A program made the position numbers and the translations under genes. A stretch of 64,000 bases of DNA from a virus. Shown here piece after piece: positions 5,406 through 31,939 of the stretch (its first letter is position 1; every line of letters starts with the position of its first letter). The stretch lies in IMG/VR virus record IMGVR_UViG_3300024350_000006; one strand, 5' to 3'. The notes below the pieces were generated by a model, which saw only the letters and a program-made list of their open reading frames with translations, had not been told where the DNA came from and made no database searches.

Positions 5406-6932
5406 ATGAATCTTATGGAACTTTTTAACTTGCAGGAACTAGCTGTGGATGCAAGATATGCTACCCGGGCAGAACTTGGTATTCTTGCTGCTAACCTAGG
5501 CTCAGTGATGCCGGGGATTCGTTTTGAAGTAGAAAAGAAAGCAGAGAGTCCTGTGATCTATATAAGGATTAAAGGTGCTCAGCGCGAGGATATAACCAAC
5601 TACTTCGCCAGTCTGGGACTGGACGAGCTACCACCTGATCCTGATCAACTTAGAATTAGCGGTCAATATCGTGCCAACATCCTAAGCTACAGCACAACTA
5701 GTAACGTTATTGATCAAATTAAACCAGGCAAGGCACATCAACTACCCAGCGACGATCAAGATATAAAGAACATAATCTACACCCTAGTAGTAGCCGGAGT
5801 TGGTGATCAAGGAAGTATTAGTGTAGGTAAAAAAGAATTAACACCAGTTAGTCTGGGACTAGCTGTTAGAACTTATAACAAGGACGAATTAGTAGGCGCC
5901 ACAAAACAAGCCCTAGCAGATAAAATTAAAACACGACCTGAATTAATTGAAATTTGTTCACAACTATTAGACATAGCCGCGGCTGGAGGGCAAGGAACTA
6001 TATCCCCTGAGTTAAATAAAAAACTAGGTAGTAAAGCACGTAATCAACTCAGTGTTGATTTCGGAGAGATACTTGCACCCATAATGTTTTCCCAGGGAGG
6101 AGAACTTATAGAGTTTCCTGCAGAAGGAAACTTCCCTTTAATTGATGTAATAGTGGGGAAAAATAATTATAGCGTAAAAAGTCTTACTGGGTCTGGGACA
6201 AGCTTTGCTAGCATTGCTGATCTAATGGATAGCTATGAAGACAAACTTAAAAAATCCGGAAGTAAAGACAGTAAAAAAGTAGAAAAACTATTTCAACTTT
6301 TTAAAGGTTATCACCCCAGTGCTGGTGGCAAAAACGTTGACAAGATTATCCGCGGTGCAGCCTTTGTAAAAACAGCAGAGTATGTCAAACTAACGGAAAT
6401 TTTAGGTGGAAGTTTTAACGACTATGATGGCCTACAAGCTCTAGTTAATGAATTAATTAAAAAAATTTATAGTAAGGACAAAGTTCAAAATCCTACCGAA
6501 TACTATTCAGATTTTTTAAATACTGTTTATCCAGCAATGACAGCTGGTGGTTGGGAAAAGCCCGCAGGATTACCAGCTGATGGTGCTTACTATATGGGCA
6601 AAGCCAAGGAGCTTAAAGCAGAAAAAACTGCGGGATACCCTAGCTTTAGAACCAACACAGTCAAAGCAGCAACAGATATTTTAACTTATGTATTAGGCGT
6701 TGGTACGCTTAATTTAGTCACACGTGGCAGTGATGCAGAACAATATGCTGAAATGATGACAAACATTGTAAATCAAAGCCCAGCTTATCTAGGTCGATTG
6801 GACATCACTGGTAATGGTGGTTTGGTTGCCGTCAAAACAGCATTTACTGATCTAAAATTTAAATTCCAGTATCACGCTCCAAGTCATATACCTGGTAATA
6901 ACTTACCTGGGTTTATGATTGTGATGGATTAA
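5406..6932 (+). CDS. hypothetical late protein, possible PD-(D/E)xK nuclease fold
   Basis: TATAAATA late motif just upstream; DFGE...NFPLIDV...YSVKS resembles a PD-(D/E)xK active site. Confidence 0.6.
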   Translation: MNLMELFNLQELAVDARYATRAELGILAANLGSVMPGIRFEVEKKAESPVIYIRIKGAQREDITNYFASLGLDELPPDPDQLRISGQYRANILSYSTTSNVIDQIKPGKAHQLPSDDQDIKNIIYTLVVAGVGDQGSISVGKKELTPVSLGLAVRTYNKDELVGATKQALADKIKTRPELIEICSQLLDIAAAGGQGTISPELNKKLGSKARNQLSVDFGEILAPIMFSQGGELIEFPAEGNFPLIDVIVGKNNYSVKSLTGSGTSFASIADLMDSYEDKLKKSGSKDSKKVEKLFQLFKGYHPSAGGKNVDKIIRGAAFVKTAEYVKLTEILGGSFNDYDGLQALVNELIKKIYSKDKVQNPTEYYSDFLNTVYPAMTAGGWEKPAGLPADGAYYMGKAKELKAEKTAGYPSFRTNTVKAATDILTYVLGVGTLNLVTRGSDAEQYAEMMTNIVNQSPAYLGRLDITGNGGLVAVKTAFTDLKFKFQYHAPSHIPGNNLPGFMIVMD

Positions 6933-7611
6933 TCTGTTTTTTTAACGCTGCGCGGTAACTACTACGTACTACTTTCTGCCAATCACTAGCAAATGTGCCG
7001 TGAACTATAATATGAAATCTATCCTGATGACTGTTATTATAAACGGCGTGTGTATAATTTGTGTTAAACAAAAACGCTGATCCAGAATCTTTAAAGGGCA
7101 CTTCACCGCTAGTGGTAACCAATCTACAATTCTCGGGATTGTTAAGACTTATATTAACTGCACTTCCTAAAAAACTCTCAGGGTTATCAAAATGTGGAGA
7201 GATATATCCATCGGGCTCCAGTAACATATACCTTATTCTATCGTAATTTTGATAGGGAAATTTATTTTTAAAATAGTCCACTGTCACAGGACACAACGGT
7301 GCTATATCTGTCCAAGAATAAGGAACTTGATCTGAAGTATAGCCATATTCTTCTGGAACTCCGGTCTTTTCTGCACTGATTCCGTGTACACAAAGACTTC
7401 GCCAACCCTCGCCGTCCTGTGGCCTGTGTGTTACAAATCTATCTTTTAATGCACGAGCTTCCTGTAACATTCCTGCATAGGGTGCATCTAGTAATAATTC
7501 CAAATAGGGAGCTTTACTCTGGAATAGAGGATCAGAGATATCTGTTTCATAGACAAACGTATTACTTTTGTTTGCTTCTATAAATTTTATAGTTTGATCA
7601 AGTGCTGACAT
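6913..7611 (-). CDS. aspartyl/asparaginyl beta-hydroxylase-like 2OG-Fe(II) oxygenase
   Basis: PHFD (HxD) ... HAVYN ... DRFHIIVHG. Confidence 0.8.
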   Translation of the reverse strand: MSALDQTIKFIEANKSNTFVYETDISDPLFQSKAPYLELLLDAPYAGMLQEARALKDRFVTHRPQDGEGWRSLCVHGISAEKTGVPEEYGYTSDQVPYSWTDIAPLCPVTVDYFKNKFPYQNYDRIRYMLLEPDGYISPHFDNPESFLGSAVNISLNNPENCRLVTTSGEVPFKDSGSAFLFNTNYTHAVYNNSHQDRFHIIVHGTFASDWQKVVRSSYRAALKKQINPSQS

Positions 7612-7687
7612 TTATCCAAATTGGTAAGAAAGAGCTAGACATTAAAATATTTATCGTGCATAATGTGGTTGTTGCTTGTGCAGCACT

Positions 7688-7765
7688 GGGCCTTTAGCTC
7701 ACGGTGGTTAGAGCATCCGACTCATAATCGGGTGGTAGTTGGTTCGACTCCAACAAGGCCCACCA
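7688..7765 (+). tRNA. tRNA-Ile2 (CAT, lysidine type) or Met
   Basis: Cloverleaf, loop CTCATAA, resembles bacterial Ile2, CCA encoded. Confidence 0.85.
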
Positions 7766-7773
7766 AAGAATTC

Positions 7774-7802
7774 TTGACACTAAATAAACTACGCTGTAAT
7801 AT
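7774..7802 (+). promoter_or_regulatory. sigma70-type promoter with nested late motif (CTAAATA)
   Basis: TTGACA-17 bp-TAATAT. Confidence 0.55.
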
Positions 7803-7811
7803 AATGAATAT

Positions 7812-7896
7812 GCGACTGTGGTGAAATCGGTATACACAGCAGACTTAAAATCTGCCGCCGCAAGGCGTGCCGGTTCGATTCCGGCCAGTCGCACCA
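7812..7896 (+). tRNA. tRNA-Leu(TAA)
   Basis: Cloverleaf with long variable arm, loop CTTAAAA, CCA. Confidence 0.95.
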
Positions 7897-7932
7897 AAAT
7901 ATAGTTCTGCTAACTTTTTATAAATTTACAAA

Positions 7933-8508
7933 ATGACAATCGAAAATTGGTTTAGTGTACCTGTTCTGTATTACGATTTGTCAGAGGAAGAATTTGAAAA
8001 AGTTCAGGATTCAATACAACTAGCTATGCCCAAGATTCTCGAATTAGATCTTGGAAATCCCTGGGGTGATTCAGTAGAAACTTCATTTAAGTACAAAACT
8101 GATTGTAACTTAATAGAAGATTTGGGGCTAGAAGTTTTGAAAACAGTTATAATGGATCAGGCAACTTTATTTTGCCAGTCCTATGATTTAAATTACACAT
8201 TAAGGCTTAAAGAAAGCTGGGTGAATATTTCTAAAAAACAAGGGTTCCAATACCCTCATAATCACCTTCCTTTTTTGTTTTCTGGTGTATATTTTTATCA
8301 GACTAATGGAGAAGATGGCTCATTGCAGTTTAAGAGCCCCAATCCCTGGTTAAATGCAATGACATATCCTTTTGGCTACGATAAAGTAACCTATCGTCCT
8401 ATTGAGGGTAGATTGATAATGTTTCCAGCATATTTGGAGCATCTAGTTAATCTAAATAATACTGCATCTACTAGGATATCTTTATCCTTTAATATAGAAT
8501 GTAATTAA
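7933..8508 (+). CDS. putative 2OG-Fe(II) oxygenase (phage family)
   Basis: ESWVN...PHNH...SGVYF...MFPAYLEH...RISLSFN. Confidence 0.85.
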   Translation: MTIENWFSVPVLYYDLSEEEFEKVQDSIQLAMPKILELDLGNPWGDSVETSFKYKTDCNLIEDLGLEVLKTVIMDQATLFCQSYDLNYTLRLKESWVNISKKQGFQYPHNHLPFLFSGVYFYQTNGEDGSLQFKSPNPWLNAMTYPFGYDKVTYRPIEGRLIMFPAYLEHLVNLNNTASTRISLSFNIECN

Positions 8509-8513
8509 ATTAT

Positions 8514-8588
8514 CTGGCGTTCGTTCAACGGATAGGACAACAGTCTTCTAAACTGTGAATGGGGGTTCGATTCCCTCACGCCGGACCA
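8514..8588 (+). tRNA. tRNA-Arg(TCT)
   Basis: Cloverleaf, loop CTTCTAA, CCA. Confidence 0.93.
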
Positions 8589-8594
8589 TACACA

Positions 8595-9140
8595 ATGTTA
8601 CTAACTAATTTGCTGGATTTACCCACTGCAATTTATATAGAAAATAAACTAGGGGATGATTATTTTCCTTGGTATTGGAACGAAAATACACTCACAGATC
8701 AAGAAGTGAGCAGTTTAAAAAATTTTCAGTTTACACATAATTTTTATATCAACGGAGCAATTAATTCAACCTATGCACGTATGCTAGATCCCATACTTGC
8801 AAGTATTGAAAGCAAAGCAGATATAAAAATAAAAAATATTTTCAGGGCAAAAGCTAATTTGTTAACTAATATGCAAATGTCCGAGCAGGAGCTAGCTAAC
8901 GAAATACATACTGATCACGATTCTACTGACTATAGAAGTTTTGTTTATTATGTTTCCACTAGCGATGGCGACACTATAATATATGATGAGAATGAAACAA
9001 TTTTAGAACAGGCAAGTCCTGTGTTTAATAGTGGTATATTGTTTCCCTCTAGGTTACAGCACAGAGGAACACCACCCCTGCTGCACAAAAGACGCATAGT
9101 AATAAATTTTATATTGGAAATACAAAATGAACGAAACTGA
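8595..9140 (+). CDS. 2OG-Fe(II) oxygenase
   Basis: HTD...YYV..SDGDT...HRG...RIVINF. Confidence 0.82.
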   Translation: MLLTNLLDLPTAIYIENKLGDDYFPWYWNENTLTDQEVSSLKNFQFTHNFYINGAINSTYARMLDPILASIESKADIKIKNIFRAKANLLTNMQMSEQELANEIHTDHDSTDYRSFVYYVSTSDGDTIIYDENETILEQASPVFNSGILFPSRLQHRGTPPLLHKRRIVINFILEIQNERN

Positions 9141-9399
9141 TAGAGAAATACTTGTAATCACCCAGGAAGAATGCGCTGAAGTCATACAGGAAATCAGCAA
9201 GTGTTTTCGTTTTGGTATAGATAAATTACACAAAAGTGGGCTTCCGCACAGACAGGTTTTAACCCAGGAAGTGGGAGATCTAATGTGTATGCTACAGTTA
9301 ATGATGGAGCATAATATTGTAGACTCCCAGGAAGTAGAAGTTGCTAGACTAGCAAAATTGCAAAAATTGCAAGTTTTTTCAAATATTTTTAAAAAGTAG
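9127..9399 (+). CDS. MazG-like NTP pyrophosphohydrolase
   Basis: EECAEVIQ...EVGDL (EExxE...ExxD). Confidence 0.8.
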   Translation: MNETDREILVITQEECAEVIQEISKCFRFGIDKLHKSGLPHRQVLTQEVGDLMCMLQLMMEHNIVDSQEVEVARLAKLQKLQVFSNIFKK

Positions 9400-9428
9400 T
9401 TGACAAAAAGACTAAATAAATTTACAAT
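9400..9428 (+). promoter_or_regulatory. sigma70 promoter with nested CTAAATA late motif, driving the leader/attenuator
   Basis: TTGACA (9400-9405), 17 bp spacer, TACAAT (9423-9428). Confidence 0.8.
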
Positions 9429-9437
9429 ACGACAATT

Positions 9438-9560
9438 ATGAAAACTAACCTACAACACTTGTTTATATCAAAACCCTGCTCAGTGCAGCCAGCTGGCTAT
9501 TGGGTTGCGATTACACGCGAGATTAGTAATCTAGACCAGGGGCTTTGTAGAGTCTTATAA
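9438..9560 (+). CDS. putative attenuator leader peptide (40 aa, all 20 amino acids)
   Basis: MKTNLQHLFISKPCSVQPAGYWVAITREISNLDQGLCRVL; 3' end overlaps the antiterminator strand. Confidence 0.7.
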   Translation: MKTNLQHLFISKPCSVQPAGYWVAITREISNLDQGLCRVL

Positions 9561-9593
9561 TTGTAATTAAATAGAATTCTACAAAACCCCAGG
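9536..9593 (+). promoter_or_regulatory. antiterminator helix, mutually exclusive with the terminator
   Basis: GGGGCTTTGTAGAGT (9539-9553) pairs with ATTCTACAAAACCCC (9576-9590), one mismatch and one GU pair. Confidence 0.75.
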
Positions 9594-9618
9594 ACTCGAA
9601 ACCCTGGGGTTTTTGTTT
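9583..9618 (+). terminator. intrinsic terminator (attenuator)
   Basis: AAAACCCCAGG / CCTGGGGTTTT stem followed by T-rich tract. Confidence 0.85.
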
Positions 9619-9632
9619 ATATAAAGGGAGAA

Positions 9633-9797
9633 ATGACAACTGAACAGGAAATTCTGTCGTTTCAAAAAAAGTTAGAAGAACGTAATTTTGTTTTTAACGA
9701 TCGATTGCTTGAACAATTGTTTAAAGAAAAAATGGAACGTTTGCGCAGGCAAACAGAACTTAATCAAGAATTACGTCGGCTAATAAAGAGGCGATAA
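9633..9797 (+). CDS. small basic helical protein (54 aa)
   Basis: AAGGGAG RBS; MTTEQEILSFQKKLEERNFVFNDRLLEQLFKEKMERLRRQ... Confidence 0.6.
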   Translation: MTTEQEILSFQKKLEERNFVFNDRLLEQLFKEKMERLRRQTELNQELRRLIKRR

Positions 9798-9804
9798 AGC
9801 AGTA

Positions 9805-9947
9805 AAGTGCAATGTGGAACGAGGCCACTGCTCACTATAAAAAGCTAAACGGGCGGACAGTATATATGAAATCACGGCGAGAACGTTGAGAGTAAGACTA
9901 CTGGTTGGGGTGTCGACCCCAACATAATGCGAGGTAACTCGCATTAT
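9805..9947 (+). ncRNA. unknown structured RNA
   Basis: Non-coding; hairpins GTTGGGG/CCCCAAC, ATAATGCGAG-GTAA-CTCGCATTAT, CAGTA/TACTG. Confidence 0.5.
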
Positions 9948-10055
9948 TCTAAAGCACACTGGGCTAAGTACACGCCTATGCTCTGGACGCAGCCGGGCCG
10001 CCGTAAGGGGGCCTTTAAGGTGGACGGTTCGAATCCGTTAGTGTGTTTTAGAATA
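9945..10055 (+). ncRNA. stem-closed RNA cassette 1, contains a tRNA-like T-arm
   Basis: TATTCTAAAGCACACT / AGTGTGTTTTAGAATA closing stem; GACGG-TTCGAAT-CCGTT inside. Confidence 0.65.
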
Positions 10056-10109
10056 GTTCACCAAATATACTTTACAATTAGTGAGTTTGGCTATATACTA
10101 GAAAAATAC

Positions 10110-10204
10110 GGAGCGTTGGCCGAGTTGGTCGAAGGCACTTTCCTGCTAAGAAAGCATCTGGACAAAAATCTGGATCGTTGGTTCGAATCCAACACGCTCC
10201 GCCA
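10110..10204 (+). tRNA. tRNA-Ser(GCT)
   Basis: Long variable arm, loop CTGCTAA, GCCA end. Confidence 0.95.
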
Positions 10205-10223
10205 AATTATTAAGTGATGATAT

Positions 10224-10844
10224 ATGGTAAATAAAAGTTTCTTATATAAGAATATATTTTCTCAAGAAGAAGTTAATCAAATTTTAAATTTTTTTAAAAA
10301 TCAGCCAATAGCTACAAAAAATTATTTAAATTTTGATAAAAACCTTGATTACCATATTGAAGATAGTTTTGCCCATACTTTTATTAAACCAAAGATACAA
10401 GCTCTAATAGGTGATCATCATTTTGAAAACGGTAGCTACAAAGAATGTATCCAACCCTATACTATACATATAGACAATTATGCTTGGTGGGACGATACCT
10501 ATACTTTTAAAGCAGAAGAAAACCATCAATGTTTTTTGTTGATACCTCTCGTTACTAGTCCTAAATTACGTACTGTAACATTTGATATATTTTACGAAAA
10601 ACGTTATGAAATGGGAGAACCAATGCCCAGTGAATGGTTAGGTGTTAAAAATACACTAGATCTAGAAGACTTTTCGCATTGTAAGCCTGAAACCCGAGAG
10701 CAAATACAGTATCTTCCAGTTGATAGAGATTTAGAATGGCAAGCAGGCGATGTTATTAGATGGCATAAAAACCAATTACATTGCAGCACTGATTTTGCCA
10801 AATACGATTTAGTTAAAAAATTTGTATTATTGGGTCTAGCATAA
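10224..10844 (+). CDS. hypothetical, 2OG-Fe(II) oxygenase-like
   Basis: HID ... LHCS pattern. Confidence 0.6.
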   Translation: MVNKSFLYKNIFSQEEVNQILNFFKNQPIATKNYLNFDKNLDYHIEDSFAHTFIKPKIQALIGDHHFENGSYKECIQPYTIHIDNYAWWDDTYTFKAEENHQCFLLIPLVTSPKLRTVTFDIFYEKRYEMGEPMPSEWLGVKNTLDLEDFSHCKPETREQIQYLPVDRDLEWQAGDVIRWHKNQLHCSTDFAKYDLVKKFVLLGLA

Positions 10845-10853
10845 CAAAATAAA

Positions 10854-10943
10854 GGAAGTGTGGCAGAGTCCGGTTTAATGCACCTGTCTTGAAAACAGAC
10901 GATCAGAAATGGTCCGTGGGTTCGAATCCTACCACTTCCGCCA
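10854..10943 (+). tRNA. tRNA-Ser(TGA)
   Basis: Long variable arm, loop CTTGAAA, GCCA end. Confidence 0.95.
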
Positions 10944-11029
10944 GAATGTTCAAAAACTATCAATACCTATTGACTTAAATTAGAACTTAAAGTAATATGT
11001 GAACTTCATTAACTAAGTAGGAGTTCATA

Positions 11030-11287
11030 ATGAACATTAAACTTCGAGCAGCAGGTCGCACAGTGGGTATGATTGCCATAGCTACACTGGCTCCTCTGTT
11101 TGTAATGCTCTTGTTTAGGCTAGATAGTGATACACTTTTTGGTCTATTTACAATTTCCTTTTTCGCCTGGATGATCTGGGTAGTCTATTCAATTAATTTA
11201 ACGCAGTTGGAATCGGAAGAAAAAATTAAAGAGATTCAGGAACGTCGTAGTACAATGATTTCTGGTATGATTAAAGATCCGGAGTAG
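11030..11287 (+). CDS. small two-TM membrane protein
   Basis: AGGAG RBS, two hydrophobic segments; stop codon lies inside tRNA-Trp. Confidence 0.7.
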   Translation: MNIKLRAAGRTVGMIAIATLAPLFVMLLFRLDSDTLFGLFTISFFAWMIWVVYSINLTQLESEEKIKEIQERRSTMISGMIKDPE

Positions 11288-11351
11288 TATAGTGGCAGTG
11301 CGGCGGTCTCCAAAACCGTTAGTGGGGGTTCGATTCCCTCCTCCGGAGCCA
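11278..11351 (+). tRNA. tRNA-Trp(CCA)
   Basis: Cloverleaf, loop CTCCAAA. Confidence 0.93.
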
Positions 11352-11374
11352 ACAATTTTTCTAGGAGTATAATT

Positions 11375-11554
11375 ATGAAGTATCTAAGACTTGCAGTTCC
11401 TACTAGCATTTTTATTTTGTGTTTTCTTAATCTTGCCTTGGCTGTACATCAACACAATGATATGGCGATATGGGCTAATGTAACAGCCCTGTTTGGTTGG
11501 TTAATTGTCAGCGCAGACGAATACACCTATTTTAAGACTAGAGGGACATTGTGA
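11375..11554 (+). CDS. small membrane protein (59 aa), paralog of the next ORF
   Basis: AGGAG RBS; MKYLRLAVPTSIFILCFLNL...GWLIV. Confidence 0.6.
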   Translation: MKYLRLAVPTSIFILCFLNLALAVHQHNDMAIWANVTALFGWLIVSADEYTYFKTRGTL

Positions 11555-11742
11555 AAGGCAGTATATTAAAAATAATTGTACCCGTGCTTTTAGTAATAAT
11601 GGGGGCGATTGGTATAGGCACGTATTATGTGCAGGGGAATATGCCAGCAGTGTCTGGATATTTTAGTGCAACACTGGGTTGGCTTATTGTAGCTGGTTTC
11701 AATACAGTCAATTATATTAAAGAGAAAGAATATCTTGTTTAA
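11551..11742 (+). CDS. small membrane protein
   Basis: Two TM segments, shares GWLIV with the upstream ORF, GTGA overlap. Confidence 0.6.
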   Translation: MKGSILKIIVPVLLVIMGAIGIGTYYVQGNMPAVSGYFSATLGWLIVAGFNTVNYIKEKEYLV

Positions 11743-11923
11743 ATTTCCTCTACGTGAATGGCCACATTATATTAAATGGAAATGGCAACAGTTGTTTAGA
11801 CGTAAAAATTTTATGTAATAAAGATAGTCCGGCCTGTAGTTGGGGTATAGCTAGAATTTACTAGTGAACGTATAGGACGCTATGCGCTACGGACATCTAG
11901 GAGGTAATAAGCCTCCAACCTAT

Positions 11924-12001
11924 GCATCGGTACCAGAGAGGCCTAATGGCGGGGTCTGCAAAACCTTCGATTCGCTGGTTCGAATCCAGCCCGATGCTCC
12001 A
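11924..12001 (+). tRNA. tRNA-Cys(GCA)
   Basis: Cloverleaf, loop CTGCAAA, TCCA end. Confidence 0.93.
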
Positions 12002-12012
12002 GGATACTTTGA

Positions 12013-12085
12013 TGCGGGTTAGGGAAGAGGTCATCCCGTTAGGCTCATAACCTGAAGATCGTTGGTTCGAATCCAGCACCCGCTT
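12013..12085 (+). tRNA. tRNA-Met(CAT), initiator-like, no encoded CCA
   Basis: Unpaired 1:72, GGCTCATAACC arm as in fMet tRNAs. Confidence 0.8.
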
Positions 12086-12117
12086 CAAAGTATCTTGCCA
12101 ATCTTATAAATATTTTT

Positions 12118-12354
12118 ATGTTATGGGATTGGCATATCTTCCAGTACCGAGCGGAAATACCCTGGCCACAGATGCCCGATGCGCAACTGGACTGGGTCTG
12201 GGGGTTATACTCCGTGGAAAACTGGTTGACCTCTAATGTGGGCCCTAGATATTCTAACTGGGCTTTTGAACCCACTGATCAAATTTACAATATAGGTGTC
12301 GCTTTCCGCTGGGAGCGAGATCAAGTTCTTTTCGTCCTTAAATGGACTCAGTAA
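12118..12354 (+). CDS. hypothetical protein
   Basis: TATAAATA motif upstream; ends in LFVLKW like several paralogs at 44-46 kb. Confidence 0.65.
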   Translation: MLWDWHIFQYRAEIPWPQMPDAQLDWVWGLYSVENWLTSNVGPRYSNWAFEPTDQIYNIGVAFRWERDQVLFVLKWTQ

Positions 12355-12364
12355 AATAATTTAT

Positions 12365-12457
12365 ACTTGGGTAGTGTAACGGTAGCACGACGAGATTTAT
12401 AACCTCGATACGCTAGATGGGCGGTTAGAGAGGGTTCGAATCCCTCCCCAAGTACCA
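12365..12457 (+). tRNA. atypical tRNA, anticodon TAT (Ile), long variable arm
   Basis: ACTTGGG/CCCAAGT acceptor, loop TTTATAA, ~22 nt variable region, T-arm, ACCA. Confidence 0.8.
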
Positions 12458-12464
12458 AAACAAT

Positions 12465-12540
12465 GCGGGCGTAGCTCAGTTGGTAGAGCGTTACCTTGCC
12501 AAGGTAAATGTCGTCAGTTCGAACCTGATCGCCCGCTCCA
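12465..12540 (+). tRNA. tRNA-Gly(GCC)
   Basis: Canonical cloverleaf. Confidence 0.96.
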
Positions 12541-12637
12541 GTTACTTTAAGGGGAAACAAAATGGGGCAATCGCAGTTTTTATTCTTGTAGTGTACTTAC
12601 TGGTCCTAATCGATAATAATGTAAAATAAATATTTGG

Positions 12638-12859
12638 ATGATTTATGTTGACTATGATAACACTGGACTAGAGATTTATATGGTCACTAATGATTACAAC
12701 GAATGTTTAATTAGGACTACCAATCGCGGCCTAGCCTATTTTGTAGATAAACACAGTCGCGGTCTTAAACAGGGGATGTTTCTTGTAGTTGGAGGAGACC
12801 CTGGATCAAGAAAAGCTAGGCGCCCAATATTTCATCATATAAGGCGTTATTCCAGGTAG
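12638..12859 (+). CDS. hypothetical protein
   Basis: ORF downstream of TAAATA motif. Confidence 0.6.
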   Translation: MIYVDYDNTGLEIYMVTNDYNECLIRTTNRGLAYFVDKHSRGLKQGMFLVVGGDPGSRKARRPIFHHIRRYSR

Positions 12860-12922
12860 TTGTTCAAAAAACTTGTGTTAAATGTATTTTCAAGTATAAT
12901 GTAAGGCAGTTAGGAAAAAATT

Positions 12923-13192
12923 ATGGATATTACAGTAGCAACAAATTTTGTAACAAGTACTTTATTGATTAGCGTGGCCTGTATGATAGTAGCAGGTTGT
13001 GCAATTTTAATTAACAATATGATTCACAGATGGTGGAAGCCTTTAAGCTGGAGTATTGTGCCGCAGAGTATAAAGGATGTTATATCAGGAAACTTTGAAC
13101 AACCTGCCAAGGAAGTTAAAGAACCTGTAAAACAAGAACCACACATTGAACATCAGGAAAATACAGTAACACAAGTACGAGTTAAAGATTAA
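12923..13192 (+). CDS. hypothetical membrane protein
   Basis: N-terminal TM helix, AGGA RBS. Confidence 0.65.
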   Translation: MDITVATNFVTSTLLISVACMIVAGCAILINNMIHRWWKPLSWSIVPQSIKDVISGNFEQPAKEVKEPVKQEPHIEHQENTVTQVRVKD

Positions 13193-13198
13193 TTTCTA

Positions 13199-13274
13199 GC
13201 CGCTGTAGCTCAGTTGGTAGAGCGCCTGATTTGTAATCAGGATGTCGAGGGTTCGATTCCTTTCGGCGGCACCA
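13199..13274 (+). tRNA. tRNA-Thr(TGT)
   Basis: Canonical cloverleaf. Confidence 0.96.
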
Positions 13275-13277
13275 AGA

Positions 13278-13480
13278 ACCTCGTAGTCCCATCTACGTTA
13301 TTAACTGGGGGTAAATTGGCTTCACCATAATGCCAGGGCTCATACGATGATAGCCTCAAGGCCCGCTATATGGGCGACTTGAAAAATCGTAGGTGGGTAC
13401 TACGCCTTGCCAGAAGTAAATGTAGAGGACGGAGTAACAGCCCAGTCTGGGGCTGATGAGGATCAGTAGCCAGACAACTT
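13278..13480 (+). ncRNA. unknown structured RNA (family A, copy 1)
   Basis: CGTAGTCCCATCTACG pairs with CGTAGGTGGGTACTACG; terminal GTCTGG/CCAGAC hairpin; motifs shared with 22440-22630. Confidence 0.6.
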
Positions 13481-13648
13481 ATTTTTTTAACCTAGGTACT
13501 ATTGTAGTATGCTAGGTTTTTTTATGCGTTGACAACAAGGAGATCCTGTTATGGATAGTGACAAGAAGGGTCTATTAAGATATGGTTGGACATATCGCGA
13601 TAGGCTTAAACGAGCAGCAATAATGTTCCAACTATATGGTATTACAAT

Positions 13649-13725
13649 GGGTGCGTAACTCAACTGGTTAGAGTAATCGGCTTTTAACCGATAAGTTGTG
13701 AGTTCGAGTCTCACCGCACCTACCA
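13649..13725 (+). tRNA. tRNA-Lys(TTT)
   Basis: Cloverleaf, loop CTTTTAA. Confidence 0.95.
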
Positions 13726-13811
13726 TATAAAAACACATTCGAATATAATAATAATAGCGCCCGGGGCTATGGAGAGTATACGACTGTCCAGGAATGTGTT
13801 TTTATATGGTA
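13721..13811 (+). ncRNA. stem-closed RNA cassette 2
   Basis: Perfect 20 bp inverted repeat TACCATATAAAAACACATTC / GAATGTGTTTTTATATGGTA. Confidence 0.6.
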
Positions 13812-14177
13812 CTAGTAAAAACTTATCTAGGGCCTAGCCCTATACACGGACTGGGAGTATTTGCAGATGAATTTGTCCCACAAGGAACTAAAATCTGGCA
13901 GCTAACACCAGGTCTAGATCTAGAGTGGTGTTATTTGGATTTTATTTCTCTACCACTCGCCGCACGAGAGTACATATTACATTGGGGATACAAAGATCCT
14001 GAATCTCAAATGTACAGATTAAGTTTTGACAATGACAGATTTATGAATTGGAGTCGAACTCCAAATGTCGTAGGTAATAGCAATGAAACATTTGCGGCTA
14101 GAGATATTGACAAAGGTGAAGAATTAACTTATCCATATTCCGAAGATTTATTAGGAGATCAAGATGCCAATGTATGA
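13806..14177 (+). CDS. SET domain protein (lysine methyltransferase-like)
   Basis: SPIHGLGVFA...RFMNWS..PN...AARDIDKGEELTYPY. Confidence 0.88.
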   Translation: MVLVKTYLGPSPIHGLGVFADEFVPQGTKIWQLTPGLDLEWCYLDFISLPLAAREYILHWGYKDPESQMYRLSFDNDRFMNWSRTPNVVGNSNETFAARDIDKGEELTYPYSEDLLGDQDANV

Positions 14178-14313
14178 AACTACTGTGCGTACTCCTCAGG
14201 GAGAGACTAAAGATAGGGTGTATGCCAAGGATCTTCAAGAAGCTCGTCAACTATTTGAGCAGCGACACGGTCCTAGGAATGTACCTTATATTCCCAAAGT
14301 TATACCTAGTTAA
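14164..14313 (+). CDS. small hypothetical protein (49 aa)
   Basis: AGGAG RBS; MPMYETTVRTPQGETKDRVYA... Confidence 0.6.
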   Translation: MPMYETTVRTPQGETKDRVYAKDLQEARQLFEQRHGPRNVPYIPKVIPS

Positions 14314-14317
14314 TAAA

Positions 14318-14392
14318 GGAAGCGTAGCATAATGGTAGTGCAACACCTTCATACGGTGCGCTGTGGGGGTTCGACTCCCTCCGCTTCTACCA
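14318..14392 (+). tRNA. tRNA-Met(CAT)
   Basis: Cloverleaf, loop TTCATAC. Confidence 0.85.
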
Positions 14393-14411
14393 ATTTAACT
14401 AAAATAAATTT

Positions 14412-14729
14412 ATGAAAAAATGTCTTCATTGTGGTATTAAACATTCTCAAAAAATATCCACCTGCACAGTATGTAGAAACGGCCTACGCAGATATGGGAT
14501 GACTAGATTGGATATGTTAGCTCTGCACAAAAAACAAAAAGAAAAATGTTATTTGTGTGGGGTAAAATTAGAAATGTTTGTGGGTGCCCGCGGCGGTATG
14601 ATAGATCACTGCCACAAGACTGGGCAAGTAAGAAGTATCCTGTGCTGTAAATGCAACACCGCAGTGGGTGGAATAGAAACTCACAAAAATGTCAAAAAGT
14701 TATTAGAATATGTAAAACTCGGGGAGTAG
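14412..14729 (+). CDS. endonuclease VII-family (His-Me) nuclease, possibly a homing endonuclease
   Basis: CYLC...IDHCHKTGQVRSILCCKCN. Confidence 0.88.
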   Translation: MKKCLHCGIKHSQKISTCTVCRNGLRRYGMTRLDMLALHKKQKEKCYLCGVKLEMFVGARGGMIDHCHKTGQVRSILCCKCNTAVGGIETHKNVKKLLEYVKLGE

Positions 14730-14797
14730 CTTAGTCTGGTTAAAGCGCCTGCTTTGGGAGCAGGAGATCGAGAGTTCGAATCCCTCTTCCCCGACCA
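14720..14797 (+). tRNA. tRNA-Pro(TGG)
   Basis: Cloverleaf, loop TTTGGGA. Confidence 0.95.
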
Positions 14798-14798
14798 A

Positions 14799-15230
14799 TT
14801 ATTTAGGTGCCCAGGCGTTACAGCAAGCTCTGGGTTTCACCTTAGTATCTAGATTGAAAAAATCAGGAATTTTTTGGTTTAAAGTTTCAAAAAACGTACA
14901 AGTAGTTCCTTCTAGTGCCACACAGTTTTCACATCTAACCTTGGCAACTACGTAGCCTGCATCCTTGGGTGTAATAGAGTCCATTATAACCTGATTATCT
15001 GCAGGTACACCCTGTACGTAGAGACTACAACTGCCTTCAGCAACCACCTTGTAGTTTTTGCTAAACAGTGTGCATCTTTCACTGTCCGGCATAAAATGAG
15101 AACAGCTACTACACTGAGCAAAGTCCTTGATGTTATTCCTGGGTTCTAGGTAGATAAATGCGTCCCTACGAACTTTGTCAGAACTTTTTGTTGCTTCGGT
15201 AATTATGTTTATGTAGGATCTTAAATTCAT
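14799..15230 (-). CDS. Cys-rich protein with two HiPIP-like repeats
   Basis: CSSCSHF...C...GSCSLY and CENC...C...ACCNAW; TAAATA upstream on the - strand. Confidence 0.65.
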   Translation of the reverse strand: MNLRSYINIITEATKSSDKVRRDAFIYLEPRNNIKDFAQCSSCSHFMPDSERCTLFSKNYKVVAEGSCSLYVQGVPADNQVIMDSITPKDAGYVVAKVRCENCVALEGTTCTFFETLNQKIPDFFNLDTKVKPRACCNAWAPK

Positions 15231-15247
15231 AGTAATATTTATTTTAT

Positions 15248-15322
15248 GCCTTCGTAGCTCAGTGGTAGAGCATCGTCTTGATAAGGCGAGGGTCGGTGGA
15301 TCGTTCCCACCCGGAGGTACCA
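15248..15322 (+). tRNA. tRNA-Ile(GAT)
   Basis: Cloverleaf; atypical T-loop ATCGTTC. Confidence 0.9.
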
Positions 15323-15329
15323 GAACAAT

Positions 15330-15406
15330 TGGGGATTCGCCAAGTTGGTCAAGGCATCGGATTTTGATTCCGACATTCATAGGTTCGAATCCTATATCCC
15401 CTACCA
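15330..15406 (+). tRNA. tRNA-Gln(TTG)
   Basis: Cloverleaf, loop TTTTGAT. Confidence 0.92.
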
Positions 15407-15413
15407 TAACAAT

Positions 15414-15489
15414 GGTGACTGTAGCATAACGGTAGTGCCACGGATTGTGATTCCGTACAGTGTGAGTTCGACTCTCATCAGTCACCCCA
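15414..15489 (+). tRNA. tRNA-His(GTG)
   Basis: G-1/C73, loop TTGTGAT. Confidence 0.94.
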
Positions 15490-15495
15490 ATTTAA

Positions 15496-15571
15496 GCCGT
15501 CCAAGCTAACCTAGTGGAAGCGTCTGTCTGAAGAACAGAATGGCCTGGAGCGTAACCAGGGGTCGGCACCA
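15496..15571 (+). tRNA. tRNA-Phe(GAA), atypical
   Basis: Loop CTGAAGA; A8 and T-loop AGCGTAA deviate from consensus. Confidence 0.82.
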
Positions 15572-15575
15572 ATTA

Positions 15576-15650
15576 CGGTCCGTAGCTCAGCGGAAGAGTT
15601 CTGGTCTTCGAAACCAGCTGTCGGGAGTTCGAATCTCTCCGGACCGGCCA
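15576..15650 (+). tRNA. tRNA-Arg(TCG)
   Basis: Cloverleaf, loop CTTCGAA. Confidence 0.92.
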
Positions 15651-18636: not shown

Positions 18637-18882
18637 ATGAAAGAACAAATTAAGCAAGAAGTCAAACAAATCTTGGCCAAGCAGTTTGGTAAAACACTAG
18701 ATGAAATTTCCGATGATCTGGATCTAGAAACTCTAGGCGCAGACAGTCTAGACACAGTGGAAATTGTAATGGAACTAGAACATCATTTTCAAATCGTTAT
18801 TGAAGAAGATGAATACGAAGGCAAGTCTTCACTGACCAGCATTGTAGACCTTGTCTGCAAAAAGAAAAATCTTGAGTCCTAA
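18637..18882 (+). CDS. acyl carrier protein
   Basis: LGADSLDTVEIVMELE phosphopantetheine site. Confidence 0.93.
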   Translation: MKEQIKQEVKQILAKQFGKTLDEISDDLDLETLGADSLDTVEIVMELEHHFQIVIEEDEYEGKSSLTSIVDLVCKKKNLES

Positions 18883-20392
18883 AAAGTATCAGGTCGTTCT
18901 GTTTACAGATTTTACTGACGAGGTTTTAACTGTTAAAGCTCTAGGTGCCTATAAAATAGCCAGCGCACTACGCGAACAGGGGTATAGTTGTCTAGTAGTT
19001 GATAAACTTAGTCAGTGGACTCTTGAAGAGATTACTTCACTTGTCAACCTTGCAGTGGGACAAGAAACACTGTTTGTGGGCTTTAGCACGACTTTTCTAA
19101 AAAATTTAGACAGGATAGACAACCTATTTTTTGGTTATGCGCCTAATCTCAGTATTTTCCCACAGGGTAAGGATTTTGAAAATAGCGTAATTAAAGAAAT
19201 ACACAAGCTTAGTCCTGATTGTAAAATTTTACTGGGTGGCCACAAAATTAATCAGGACTGCGCCAACAAGAATGTCAACATAGTGGTAAGAGGTCTAGCT
19301 GAACAGGCCATTATGGATGTTGCTAACAGCCTTAGTAACAAAACTGAGATTCCCAATAGTTATAGGAATATTCACGGTGTAACGGTGGTACATCGCGATC
19401 AGGAAAAAACCTATGATTTTGCCAACAGTGCAATGCACTGGCAGGCTAGTGATATTTTAAACTATCGTGTACTGCCTTTTGAGCCAGCTCGTGGTTGTAT
19501 TTTTAATTGCAGATTTTGTAGTTTCCCACAACGTGGCAAAAAAACTCTAGACTACGTACTAACAGAAGAAATAATCTATAATGAGTTACAGAGCAATTAT
19601 GACAGATTTGGTATTACTACCTATCAGTTACTAGATGATACGTTTAATGACAGCGATCACAAACTTGATAGAATGTTATCAGTGGTTAAGCAGTTAAGCT
19701 TTCAGCCAGTATTCTGGTCCTACAACAGACTGGATCTGCTAGCTACCAAGCCCGAGCGCATTAAAAAATTATTTGATATTGGCCTAAGGGCCACTAGCTT
19801 TGGTATAGAAACTCTGAAAAAAGAGACTGGACTGGTAGTAGGTAAAGGCTTTGATGCTGCTAGACAGATACAGACTGTCAAGGATATTAAAAAAACCTAC
19901 GGCAATAATCTCTTGATGCACGGACTGTTTATAATAGGTCTACCACACGAAACTCTAGAAGAAGTGCAGCATACATTTGACTTAATAGATAGTGGTGAGT
20001 TTCCCTTACACTCGGCTTATTTCGAAGCATTGATGATAGCCAAGCCTAACCAGTATTTTTTACAGAGCGATTTTGACAAAAAATGGCCTGAGTATGGATA
20101 CAGAGATCTAGGTAGTGAGGGTCAGGGCATACTCAACTGGGCTAACGATCATATGAACTTTGACCAGGCTAGAGAAAAGAAAACAGAACTAGTGACTAGG
20201 TTGCAGCAAAGCAGTCGTTACCATATCCCTGGGCAAACCGCCTGGGCTCTAATGAACTATAATAATTTTACGCTGGACAGAGTGCAAAATTTAAAAAACA
20301 TAGAAATAGACTGGCAGGAAGTCAAGGACAGCAAACAGGCTTTTGTAACAGAATACAAGCAGAAAATGCTTGCTTTTTTAGCAACTAATTAG
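18851..20392 (+). CDS. B12-binding-type radical SAM protein
   Basis: ARGCIFNCRFC, DDTFND, FIIGLPHET. Confidence 0.9.
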   Translation: MSAKRKILSPKKYQVVLFTDFTDEVLTVKALGAYKIASALREQGYSCLVVDKLSQWTLEEITSLVNLAVGQETLFVGFSTTFLKNLDRIDNLFFGYAPNLSIFPQGKDFENSVIKEIHKLSPDCKILLGGHKINQDCANKNVNIVVRGLAEQAIMDVANSLSNKTEIPNSYRNIHGVTVVHRDQEKTYDFANSAMHWQASDILNYRVLPFEPARGCIFNCRFCSFPQRGKKTLDYVLTEEIIYNELQSNYDRFGITTYQLLDDTFNDSDHKLDRMLSVVKQLSFQPVFWSYNRLDLLATKPERIKKLFDIGLRATSFGIETLKKETGLVVGKGFDAARQIQTVKDIKKTYGNNLLMHGLFIIGLPHETLEEVQHTFDLIDSGEFPLHSAYFEALMIAKPNQYFLQSDFDKKWPEYGYRDLGSEGQGILNWANDHMNFDQAREKKTELVTRLQQSSRYHIPGQTAWALMNYNNFTLDRVQNLKNIEIDWQEVKDSKQAFVTEYKQKMLAFLATN

Positions 20393-20448
20393 CAAAATTA
20401 CAACAGTTGACATTAATGCACCAAATCGTTAAAATAGCGGTATAGTAA
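20369..20448 (+). promoter_or_regulatory. early sigma70 promoter with upstream palindromic boxes
   Basis: TTGACA(20407)-17-TAAAAT followed by AGCGGTATAGTAA, nearly identical to the promoter at 29157. Confidence 0.75.
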
Positions 20449-21461: not shown

Positions 21462-22348
21462 CTTAGGGAGTTTAATCTCTTGTTAGGCGGTTCGCCGTCT
21501 AACTAAGGATAAGTGGCGTGAGTCACCCAAAGCAGAATCCTCCTACAGGACTGCGCCAGAGATGGTCCAGTTAAACAAGCCTGCTCACTACCGCGAGGTA
21601 GCGATCACTGATAAGACCGGTGGTTGTAACAATGAAGCTGGTGTAGTGGAAAGAACTTGTATCGACTAGCCCGCAAGGGAACTAGGGTGCAAGGAAAGTA
21701 ACAGGTGGTGCTGACTTCACTACAAAACCAACCAGTTAGTTGGTATGAGAAAGGGTAGTGCATTTGTCCAAGGTTTCGCAGCCAAGGGCTTGTGTGCAGT
21801 ATGAATGGTACTTGGGGCTGCTGTGAGGCGTCACAAGAATCGTGAAATACTACTGAGTAGCCGGCAGGCGAAAGGTACGTGGTGTGTTGTATCGTGTATT
21901 CCAAAAGAGTATGCGGCAACTGGAGCAGCACATCATAGTAGGTTGATATAGCTCATTGGTAGAGCAACAGTCCTTTTAAACTGTAGGCAGTTGGTTCAAA
22001 TCCAACTATCATTAAACAAAAACGCAAAGACTGCTCCGGTTGTATGTGAAAAGCATCTAACACTTAGGGCGTAAGCTAACTAAGTTCAGTCTAACCCGCA
22101 AGGTGAAACTGATTTGTACTAGAAGATTCGTAGCTCGCAAGGCTTAATGGACCGCAAGTTCAACGGGTAATAAGGTACAGAGTAGCATACAATGACAAGA
22201 CTACTGCCTGTCTTTAAACGGCGATGCTGCAAGCAGACTGGATCACATAGCGATATGGATCTTGTGGATGTCGTGGAGAAGATTGGCTCGCAAGGCTGAC
22301 TATAATACCCGAGGTGCTTGTAGTTAAGATGTAATCTCAGTCTTAACA
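21462..22348 (+). ncRNA. large ornate ncRNA, GOLLD-like
   Basis: ~880 nt without a credible ORF, elevated GC, many GNRA-capped hairpins (CCGCAAGG, CGCGAG, GCGAAAG), inside a phage tRNA cluster, embedded tRNA-like domain. Confidence 0.7.
21942..22014 (+). pseudogene. embedded tRNA-Lys-like element with 8-nt anticodon loop, no CCA
   Basis: D-arm GCTC/GAGC, ACAGT-CCTTTTAA-ACTGT, T-arm GTTGG-TTCAAAT-CCAAC. Confidence 0.75.
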
Positions 22349-31864: not shown

Positions 31865-31939
31865 ACTTCGGTGGCAGAATGGTTGATGCTCCCATCTCTA
31901 AAATGGGCTAAATGGGTTCGAATCCCATCCGAAGTACCA
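31865..31939 (+). tRNA. amber suppressor tRNA (anticodon CTA)
   Basis: ACTTCGG/CCGAAGT acceptor, CCCAT-CTCTAAA-ATGGG anticodon arm, canonical T-arm, ACCA. Confidence 0.9.

Follow-up and report, generated by a model that had tools for sequence, protein, structure and literature searches.

An element of ~220 bp in the genome of an uncultured large phage (IMG/VR record IMGVR_UViG_3300024350_000006) is, judged from its sequence, a real, conserved and statistically strong feature, and it probably acts as a ribosome-mediated transcription attenuator, in which selection keeps all the amino acids represented in the leader peptide. Most likely, this attenuator would work as a translation-speed gauge gating the tRNA module of the phage, a reading for which we infer that the leader is translated, in which direction the switch works and to what physiological signal it responds. 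In the 64,000-nucleotide stretch of DNA that was analysed as a whole (the window), the element is made of the following parts:

9400..9428, + strand: sigma-70-type promoter (TTGACA at 9400-9405, 17-nt spacer, TACAAT at 9423-9428)
9438..9560, + strand: leader ORF (40 codons, plus TAA at 9558-9560)
9536..9552, + strand: antiterminator 5' arm, inside leader codons 33-39
9576..9593, + strand: antiterminator 3' arm, the last 9 bases of which (9585-9593) are also the terminator 5' arm
9585..9618, + strand: intrinsic terminator (9-bp stem 9585-9593/9603-9611, 9-nt loop, U tract to 9618)

Leader ORF, relatives and amino-acid coverage

The promoter was found where the original prediction had placed it, i.e., as TTGACA-17-TACAAT a few nucleotides before an ATG. 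Its hexamers agree with the consensus at 11/12 positions and are the top match within 8000-12000, and the ATG at 9438 lies 9 nt past the -10 box, the leader mRNA being nearly leaderless. No Shine-Dalgarno sequence is present before this ATG. The leader ORF likewise has the composition that had been claimed for it: its 40 codons include 35 distinct ones, without any codon run, and the twentieth amino acid (Asp33) is reached at codon 33. In the relatives (29 distinct sequences), an equivalent promoter is located 6-10 nt upstream of the ATG, with a spacer that is A-rich and conserved. Conservation of the spacer (9406-9422 in the window; A-rich, ..AAGACTAAATAAA..) extends even to distant family members, which points to a particular class of promoter, or to a binding site besides the two hexamers.

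Homologues were collected by several routes. The first relative (L001), the element of which has an in-frame insertion of three codons, was reached through the upstream MazG-like gene. A scan of IMG/VR with the terminator pattern then yielded 95 stretches, a second scan of the same resource with 15 bases inside the ORF (no terminator constraint) ~47 further members featuring other terminator variants, and a metagenome scan 13 additional loci of the window's own subfamily. In total, there are ~100 non-identical homologues, corresponding to 105 distinct ORF sequences that encode 101 different peptides (32-54 aa), which diverge to <30% identity; the phage genomes in which the family is set have a G+C content of ~39%. 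Pattern matches devoid of a U tract had no comparable ORF and serve as internal negatives. Among cultured phages (INPHARED), blastn searches with the window element and two typical members returned nothing beyond a tRNA, and an exact-pattern scan of bacterial and archaeal genomes gave no match.

In the window alone, full coverage is not significant, because 5 of 134 ATG-ORFs of 30-60 aa also have all 20, and since coverage there does not exceed chance, the case rests on the relatives. It becomes significant at the level of the family: all 20 amino acids are present in 88 of the 101 distinct leader peptides (19 in 12 others and 18 in the last one), for a chance expectation of 0.7-3%, with 0.7% at 40 aa for this phage's proteome (2.1% at 46 aa, 0.6% for windows of real proteins, and 0.06-5% over the range of leader lengths). 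This coverage persists, as the original prediction required, in spite of the divergence of the peptides and of the changing positions of the rare residues. Within the window's subfamily (39-43 aa), nine of the 13 distinct peptides are complete and the others have 19 amino acids.

The excess is also seen when conservation is accounted for. Among 25 representatives sharing <60% identity, 20 are complete (80%), against 11% on average and 36% at most (5000 trials) after within-column shuffling, a procedure that preserves the conservation of each column and breaks the links between columns. Amino acids missing from incomplete leaders are scattered and none is dispensable, Cys being absent most notably (five times). 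Most rare residues are single-copy: Cys occurs once in 80% of the representatives, spread over 20 columns, and His once in 92%, spread over 11 columns; Ala amounts to 6% of leader residues. Because single-copy Cys and His shift columns, rare residues would have been lost, then regained elsewhere, which fits selection on coverage. We therefore regard full amino-acid coverage as being itself under selection. An internal Met is found in 56/59 leaders, and the window's leader has none. Codon diversity exceeds expectation as well (35.3 distinct codons per leader vs. 32.2 upon synonymous resampling), which is weaker evidence, inflated by sequence kinship and RNA constraints.

One lineage departs from this picture. 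In IMGVR_UViG_3300044701_000569 (357 kb; loci L022/L043), the promoter, the antiterminator and the terminator are kept, and the leader ORF is 30 codons long and encodes no more than 13 types of amino acids. This copy may be either degenerate or re-purposed, and hairpins that persist without coverage count as evidence against our interpretation.

Two overlapping hairpins and the polarity of the proposed switch

The terminator stem is G+C-rich (-15.4 kcal/mol), and the stop codon of the leader (9558-9560) sits, as anticipated, within the antiterminator, in its apical part. When the nascent RNA of the window is folded before the terminator 3' arm is made, the antiterminator takes 7/9 bases of the terminator 5' arm. 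The original prediction had considered the two helices to be mutually exclusive; this is so at their bases, where those seven nucleotides are sequestered, but not for the distal 9 bp of the antiterminator, which can coexist with the terminator, such that competition in the window takes place only at the helix bases, a point that counts against our interpretation. Folding both conformations, another of the proposed checks, gave states that are close in energy: over a 99-nt segment of the window, the terminator and antiterminator states differ by 2.0 kcal/mol, and the median gap in the family is 0.8 kcal/mol, i.e., nearly isoenergetic.

This arrangement is conserved. In 99/99 non-identical variants, the nascent fold has the end of the ORF paired to the terminator 5' arm, over 5-9 of the nine bases of this arm, and the geometry is nearly fixed, with an antiterminator starting ~25 nt before the stop codon (last ~8 codons), a terminator arm starting 24-27 nt past it in almost all loci, and a U tract ~50 nt past it. 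ORF length and stop position, which had been expected to persist in relatives, are accordingly almost constant across the family. Compensatory changes are present too. The terminator is paired in 99.3% of cells (99 sequences) and the antiterminator in 88% (MAFFT alignment, in which the window's subfamily is misaligned over that region). In the same alignment, the antiterminator shows 38 doubly changed cells vs. 12 in shuffles, even if such cells overcount independent events, many of the sequences being related. Where the shared column changes from C to U, the leader arm changes from G to A in 26 sequences, and the terminator 3' arm either changes from G to A (nine sequences) or keeps a G-U pair (21 sequences). 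Both helices thus covary via a shared base, in line with the compensatory pairing that the original prediction called for. Moreover, one distal pair varies between G-C, G-U and A-U within the window's subfamily. Applied to the full-length elements, RNAalifold recovered the terminator alone, the upstream part being poorly aligned, and for that upstream region it detected no conserved pairing of the trp-like 1:2 kind.

The spacing of these parts bears on the direction of the switch. A ribosome at a stop codon covers ~12-15 nt downstream, so that the terminator arm, which starts 24-27 nt past the stop, would be out of reach of a terminating ribosome. Since a finishing ribosome would instead hold the antiterminator 5' arm, completion of the leader should cause termination. 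With no ribosome, the antiterminator would form first, so the default state would be read-through, as in whiB7. Briefly, our model is as follows. Transcription would start a few bases before the ATG and a ribosome would translate the leader as RNA polymerase advances. The last ~8 codons would be able to pair with the sequence before and inside the terminator 5' arm, enclosing the stop codon. A ribosome that has reached the last ~12 codons or the stop codon when the terminator 3' arm is made would hold the antiterminator 5' arm; the terminator would then form and transcription would end at ~9615. Conversely, slow decoding of any of the ~18-19 amino-acid types in the first ~28 codons would make the ribosome late, and a late or absent ribosome would let the antiterminator form first, with read-through into a 54-aa ORF, a structured RNA and the proximal tRNAs. 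The signal would be the shortage, cleavage or poor charging of tRNAs, or a general translation stress.

The same geometry would limit what the leader can sense. A stalled ribosome would free the antiterminator arm only with its A site ~13 or more codons before the stop; a stall in roughly the last 12 codons should mask it. When the last eight codons are dropped, 74% of leaders still have all 20 amino acids; when the last 12 are dropped, only 18% do, which is evidence against our interpretation insofar as coverage is incomplete in the zone where the antiterminator would be free. Most of this drop is due to Glu, which is lost in 59/101 leaders, this residue, and often Asp or Val, being encoded only in the last ~12 codons. 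In the window, 19 amino acids occur within codons 2-29, and a ribosome stalled at Asp33 would mask the antiterminator arm, because this codon is at its edge. The gauge would therefore cover ~18-19 amino-acid types, not strictly all of them. Consequently, the original proposal that a stall at any tRNA opens the switch can be retained for the roughly 18-19 types found in the first ~28 codons, and has to be given up for the last ~12 (Glu, and Asp33 in the window).

Another argument of the original prediction was that TTA and AGA codons, read by the Leu-UAA and Arg-UCU tRNAs encoded upstream of the switch, are kept out of the sensing part of the leader. This did not survive comparison: in L001, the closest relative, codon 6 is TTA, and tRNA-Leu(UAA) also reads the TTG found at codon 8 of the window's leader. 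We regard the confinement of TTA and AGA to the end of the leader as a coincidence. Matching leader codons to phage anticodons was in general uninformative, because the tRNA set of the phage reads nearly every codon.

Genes downstream of the proposed switch

A tRNA array on the same strand follows the element in each of the 53 loci for which the downstream flank reaches at least 1.5 kb; the first tRNA lies 185-990 nt past the terminator, and few or no tRNAs are found upstream. For the window, ARAGORN identifies 29 tRNAs, 26 of which are downstream of the switch. The earlier count of 27 out of 30 must thus be corrected to 26/29 plus a tRNA-like cassette. The first products beyond the switch are:

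9633..9797, + strand: 54-aa ORF, first gene past the switch, preceded by a strong Shine-Dalgarno sequence and starting 15 nt past the U tract
9799..9945, + strand: conserved structured RNA between the switch and the first tRNA, its motif being found downstream in 94/99 loci
9945-10055: tRNA-like cassette with a 14-bp closing stem
10110..15650, + strand: proximal tRNA block (15 tRNA genes)

The 54-aa protein is helical and basic, and its family shares a ..EQ..KLI..K.ERA.. motif; searches against Pfam, PHROGs and Atlas gave no match. A homologous ORF of 49-65 aa, led by a Shine-Dalgarno sequence, starts 15-21 nt past the U tract in 74/99 loci, in most of them without a promoter of its own. The structured RNA, which is also found in L004 (4036-4200), L008, L009 and others, features a hairpin, the AACGNGN loop of which is invariant, as well as GGGCGG and GUAAAA blocks that are conserved and single-stranded, and two helices rich in compensatory changes (21-26 per pair in the long-range helix); it has no match in Rfam. 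As for the switch itself, Rfam searches (E <= 1 over 7000-33000 and E <= 10 over 9780-10060) returned no riboswitch or T-box match.

In the cassette at 9945-10055, the T arm is canonical (GGTTCGAATCC) and the variable arm is long, yet the cassette is recognised by neither ARAGORN nor the Rfam tRNA model. The window is devoid of canonical tRNA-Tyr and tRNA-Phe, and relatives carry a tRNA-Tyr at the position of the cassette. Several other features of the tRNA region were observed. The tRNA-Ile(TAT) at 12365-12457 is 93 nt long, which is unusual for an Ile tRNA, and may contain an intron or some other insertion. The array ends with a tRNA gene (31865-31939) whose anticodon is CTA; its product is a potential amber suppressor, annotated as Pyl by ARAGORN. 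A full-length GOLLD RNA (Rfam RF02032, 214 bits) is located at 21879-22343 inside the tRNA region and contains a tRNA-like element (21942-22014) with an aberrant anticodon loop. Regarding protein genes, 2OG-Fe(II) oxygenase-like and MazG-like pyrophosphohydrolase genes (6913-9399 and 10224-10844) are found among the first tRNAs, and two B12-binding radical SAM genes are present at 1297-2835 and 18851-20392.

On the + strand of the window, there is no strong promoter or terminator between 9620 and ~20356. A weaker promoter-like site (10071-10099) precedes the first tRNA and may add expression that is independent of the switch; this counts against our interpretation, since the tRNAs may then not rely solely on the element. 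Further on, consensus promoter-like sites occur at 20407, 20721, 21428 and 29157, exactly the internal promoters listed by the original prediction. Plausibly, the unit under control would comprise the 54-aa ORF, the structured RNA, the cassette, the 15 tRNAs and the genes up to 20392.

Alternative explanations, known attenuators and biological meaning

Interpreting the element as an attenuator is supported by an open ORF, an amino-acid coverage, a geometry, a covariation pattern and a link to tRNA arrays that are all conserved. As expected of an attenuator, an intrinsic terminator (9585-9618) stands between the leader and the downstream genes, and an alternative hairpin shares bases with the terminator arm as well as with the end of the ORF, where a ribosome would sit (99/99 variants). 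Four other explanations were weighed against these observations.

It is unlikely that a real switch responds not to the ribosome but to a factor acting in trans, be it a protein, a tRNA or the downstream RNA, while the ORF encodes a peptide that does something else. Some constraint on the peptide beyond coverage does exist, since the Y/S-W and N-D-R-T-P-E motifs are conserved, and the terminator loop is conserved in sequence across the family. In addition, the conserved structured RNA and the small protein directly downstream could feed back on the switch, and the L022/L043 lineage has retained its hairpins in the absence of full coverage. Nevertheless, such a factor would leave unexplained both the full coverage at moving positions and the fixed place of the stop codon inside the antiterminator, and Rfam yields no riboswitch or T-box match that would point to one.

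The chances are smaller still that we are dealing with an ordinary small protein gene having its own promoter and terminator, in which the hairpin around the stop codon would be incidental or involved in mRNA stability only. Promoter, ORF and terminator indeed form a complete unit of ~180 nt, and the peptide is under purifying selection. Yet there is no known need for a protein of 40 aa to have exactly one Cys, one His and one Trp at shifting positions. Nor would an ordinary gene account for a hairpin that covaries with the terminator arm it overlaps, for two folds balanced to ~1 kcal/mol, or for the presence, 15-21 nt past the U tract, of a gene led by a Shine-Dalgarno sequence and mostly lacking its own promoter.

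We find it very improbable that the polarity is the opposite one, i.e., that leader translation promotes read-through, with the ribosome blocking the terminator in a pyrBI-type coupling. In some operons, ribosomes close behind the polymerase do suppress terminators. Here, a stop codon 24-27 nt before the terminator arm exceeds the ~12-15 nt that a ribosome reaches past its A site; because of this distance, a terminating ribosome would free the terminator arm instead of covering it. Lastly, a non-coding small RNA with a spurious ORF is scarcely credible: although the window ORF lacks a Shine-Dalgarno sequence, its RNA folds slightly better than shuffled copies (z = -2.1) and its coverage could be due to chance in the window alone, frame 0 is open in 105/105 distinct sequences (vs. 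3.2 and 4.3 stops on average in the other frames), synonymous changes are in excess (46% of single-base codon differences), leader lengths are always whole numbers of codons, and amino-acid coverage is conserved.

Taking the element as a ribosome-mediated attenuator, its nearest known counterpart is the whiB7 uORF attenuator, and by analogy the phage element would work like that of whiB7. There, efficient translation of the uORF leads to the terminator and poor translation to the antiterminator (PMC10274678). In both cases, the intrinsic terminator is found behind a short uORF that is mixed in composition, and for whiB7/wblC the residues encoded decide which shortages are sensed (PMC10274678). 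The M. smegmatis uORF has 19/20 amino acids, and without its single Trp codon or its His codons, the response to the corresponding depletion is reduced or abolished (PMC10274678). Sensing of multiple amino acids is therefore already known from whiB7 and is not a new principle. The differences lie elsewhere: whiB7/wblC uORFs contain 25-40% Ala and in many cases miss several amino acids, whereas the phage leaders are 6% Ala and have a conserved coverage; whiB7 controls a transcription factor in a bacterium, whereas the phage element would control tRNA genes, an RNA and a small protein; and whiB7/wblC, which belong to mycobacteria and other Actinobacteria, have no sequence relationship to the phage element. 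Contrary to the Ala-rich uORFs that precede a WhiB-family regulator in Actinobacteria, the phage leader is followed by no WhiB gene.

With the leaders of amino-acid operons (trpL, hisL, pheL, thrL, leuL and the ilv leaders), the element has in common a terminator and an alternative hairpin overlapping it, the fate of which would depend on how far a ribosome has moved along the leader. In these operons, one or a few regulatory codons are present as runs in the leader, the biosynthesis of the amino acids concerned is what is controlled, and a 1:2 pairing enforces termination without translation. In the phage element, by contrast with the trp/his type, the ribosome-free fold favours read-through, the leader of the window has 35 distinct codons in 40 instead of codon runs, and what lies downstream is not a set of biosynthesis or charging genes but the 54-aa ORF, the RNA and the tRNA genes. 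Among these systems, pheL is a documented leader-peptide attenuator of an amino-acid operon (PMC3082878). The phage element also differs from a T-box, in that it shows no Stem I specifier loop or T-box sequence for pairing with the tRNA acceptor end, and has no Rfam match. T-box riboswitches couple tRNA charging to terminator read-through by binding one uncharged tRNA, and need no translation. Two further systems share part of the design. The toiL uORF of E. coli topAI-yjhQ resembles it in that it senses in a general way the stalling of ribosomes, at more than one position, and is set apart by its description as a sensor of ribosome-targeting antibiotics (PMC12121999). Mycobacterial leaderless polycysteine short ORFs are amino-acid-responsive attenuators at the 5' end of operons, which sense one amino acid, Cys, through codon runs (bioRxiv 10.1101/834739).

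A full-text search of the literature found no attenuator on phage tRNA genes and no leader containing all amino acids. The element is thus most likely a new form of leader-peptide attenuation, which would differ from known ones in its conserved coverage and in the genes controlled. Phage tRNA genes are usually seen as constitutive helpers in codon usage or as spares against tRNA-cleaving defences, and, to our knowledge, their regulation is largely unknown. More tentatively, and as a possibility to which we give less than even chances, the leader may gauge the whole tRNA pool in a feedback loop that switches on replacement tRNAs, the RNA and the small protein, then switches them off. If so, the ribosome would be delayed, and the unit turned on, whenever the tRNA for any amino-acid type runs short, stays uncharged or is cleaved by a host anticodon nuclease; once decoding has recovered, the leader would be finished on time and the unit turned off.

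Besides the tRNAs, the element points to two more products that would be under the same control, namely a conserved protein of ~55 aa and a structured RNA that is not in Rfam. Its small size, sigma-70 promoter and intrinsic terminator should make it directly testable in laboratory bacteria, and it could serve as a reporter of translation stress. If our interpretation is true, a leader from which no amino acid is missing would provide a small, general-purpose sensor of decoding capacity, and attenuation as known for single amino acids would have been generalised in nature to the whole code. Should the feedback reading also be true, tRNA genes would for the first time be seen under the control of an attenuator, which would also be a phage-encoded sensor of tRNA-targeting defence.
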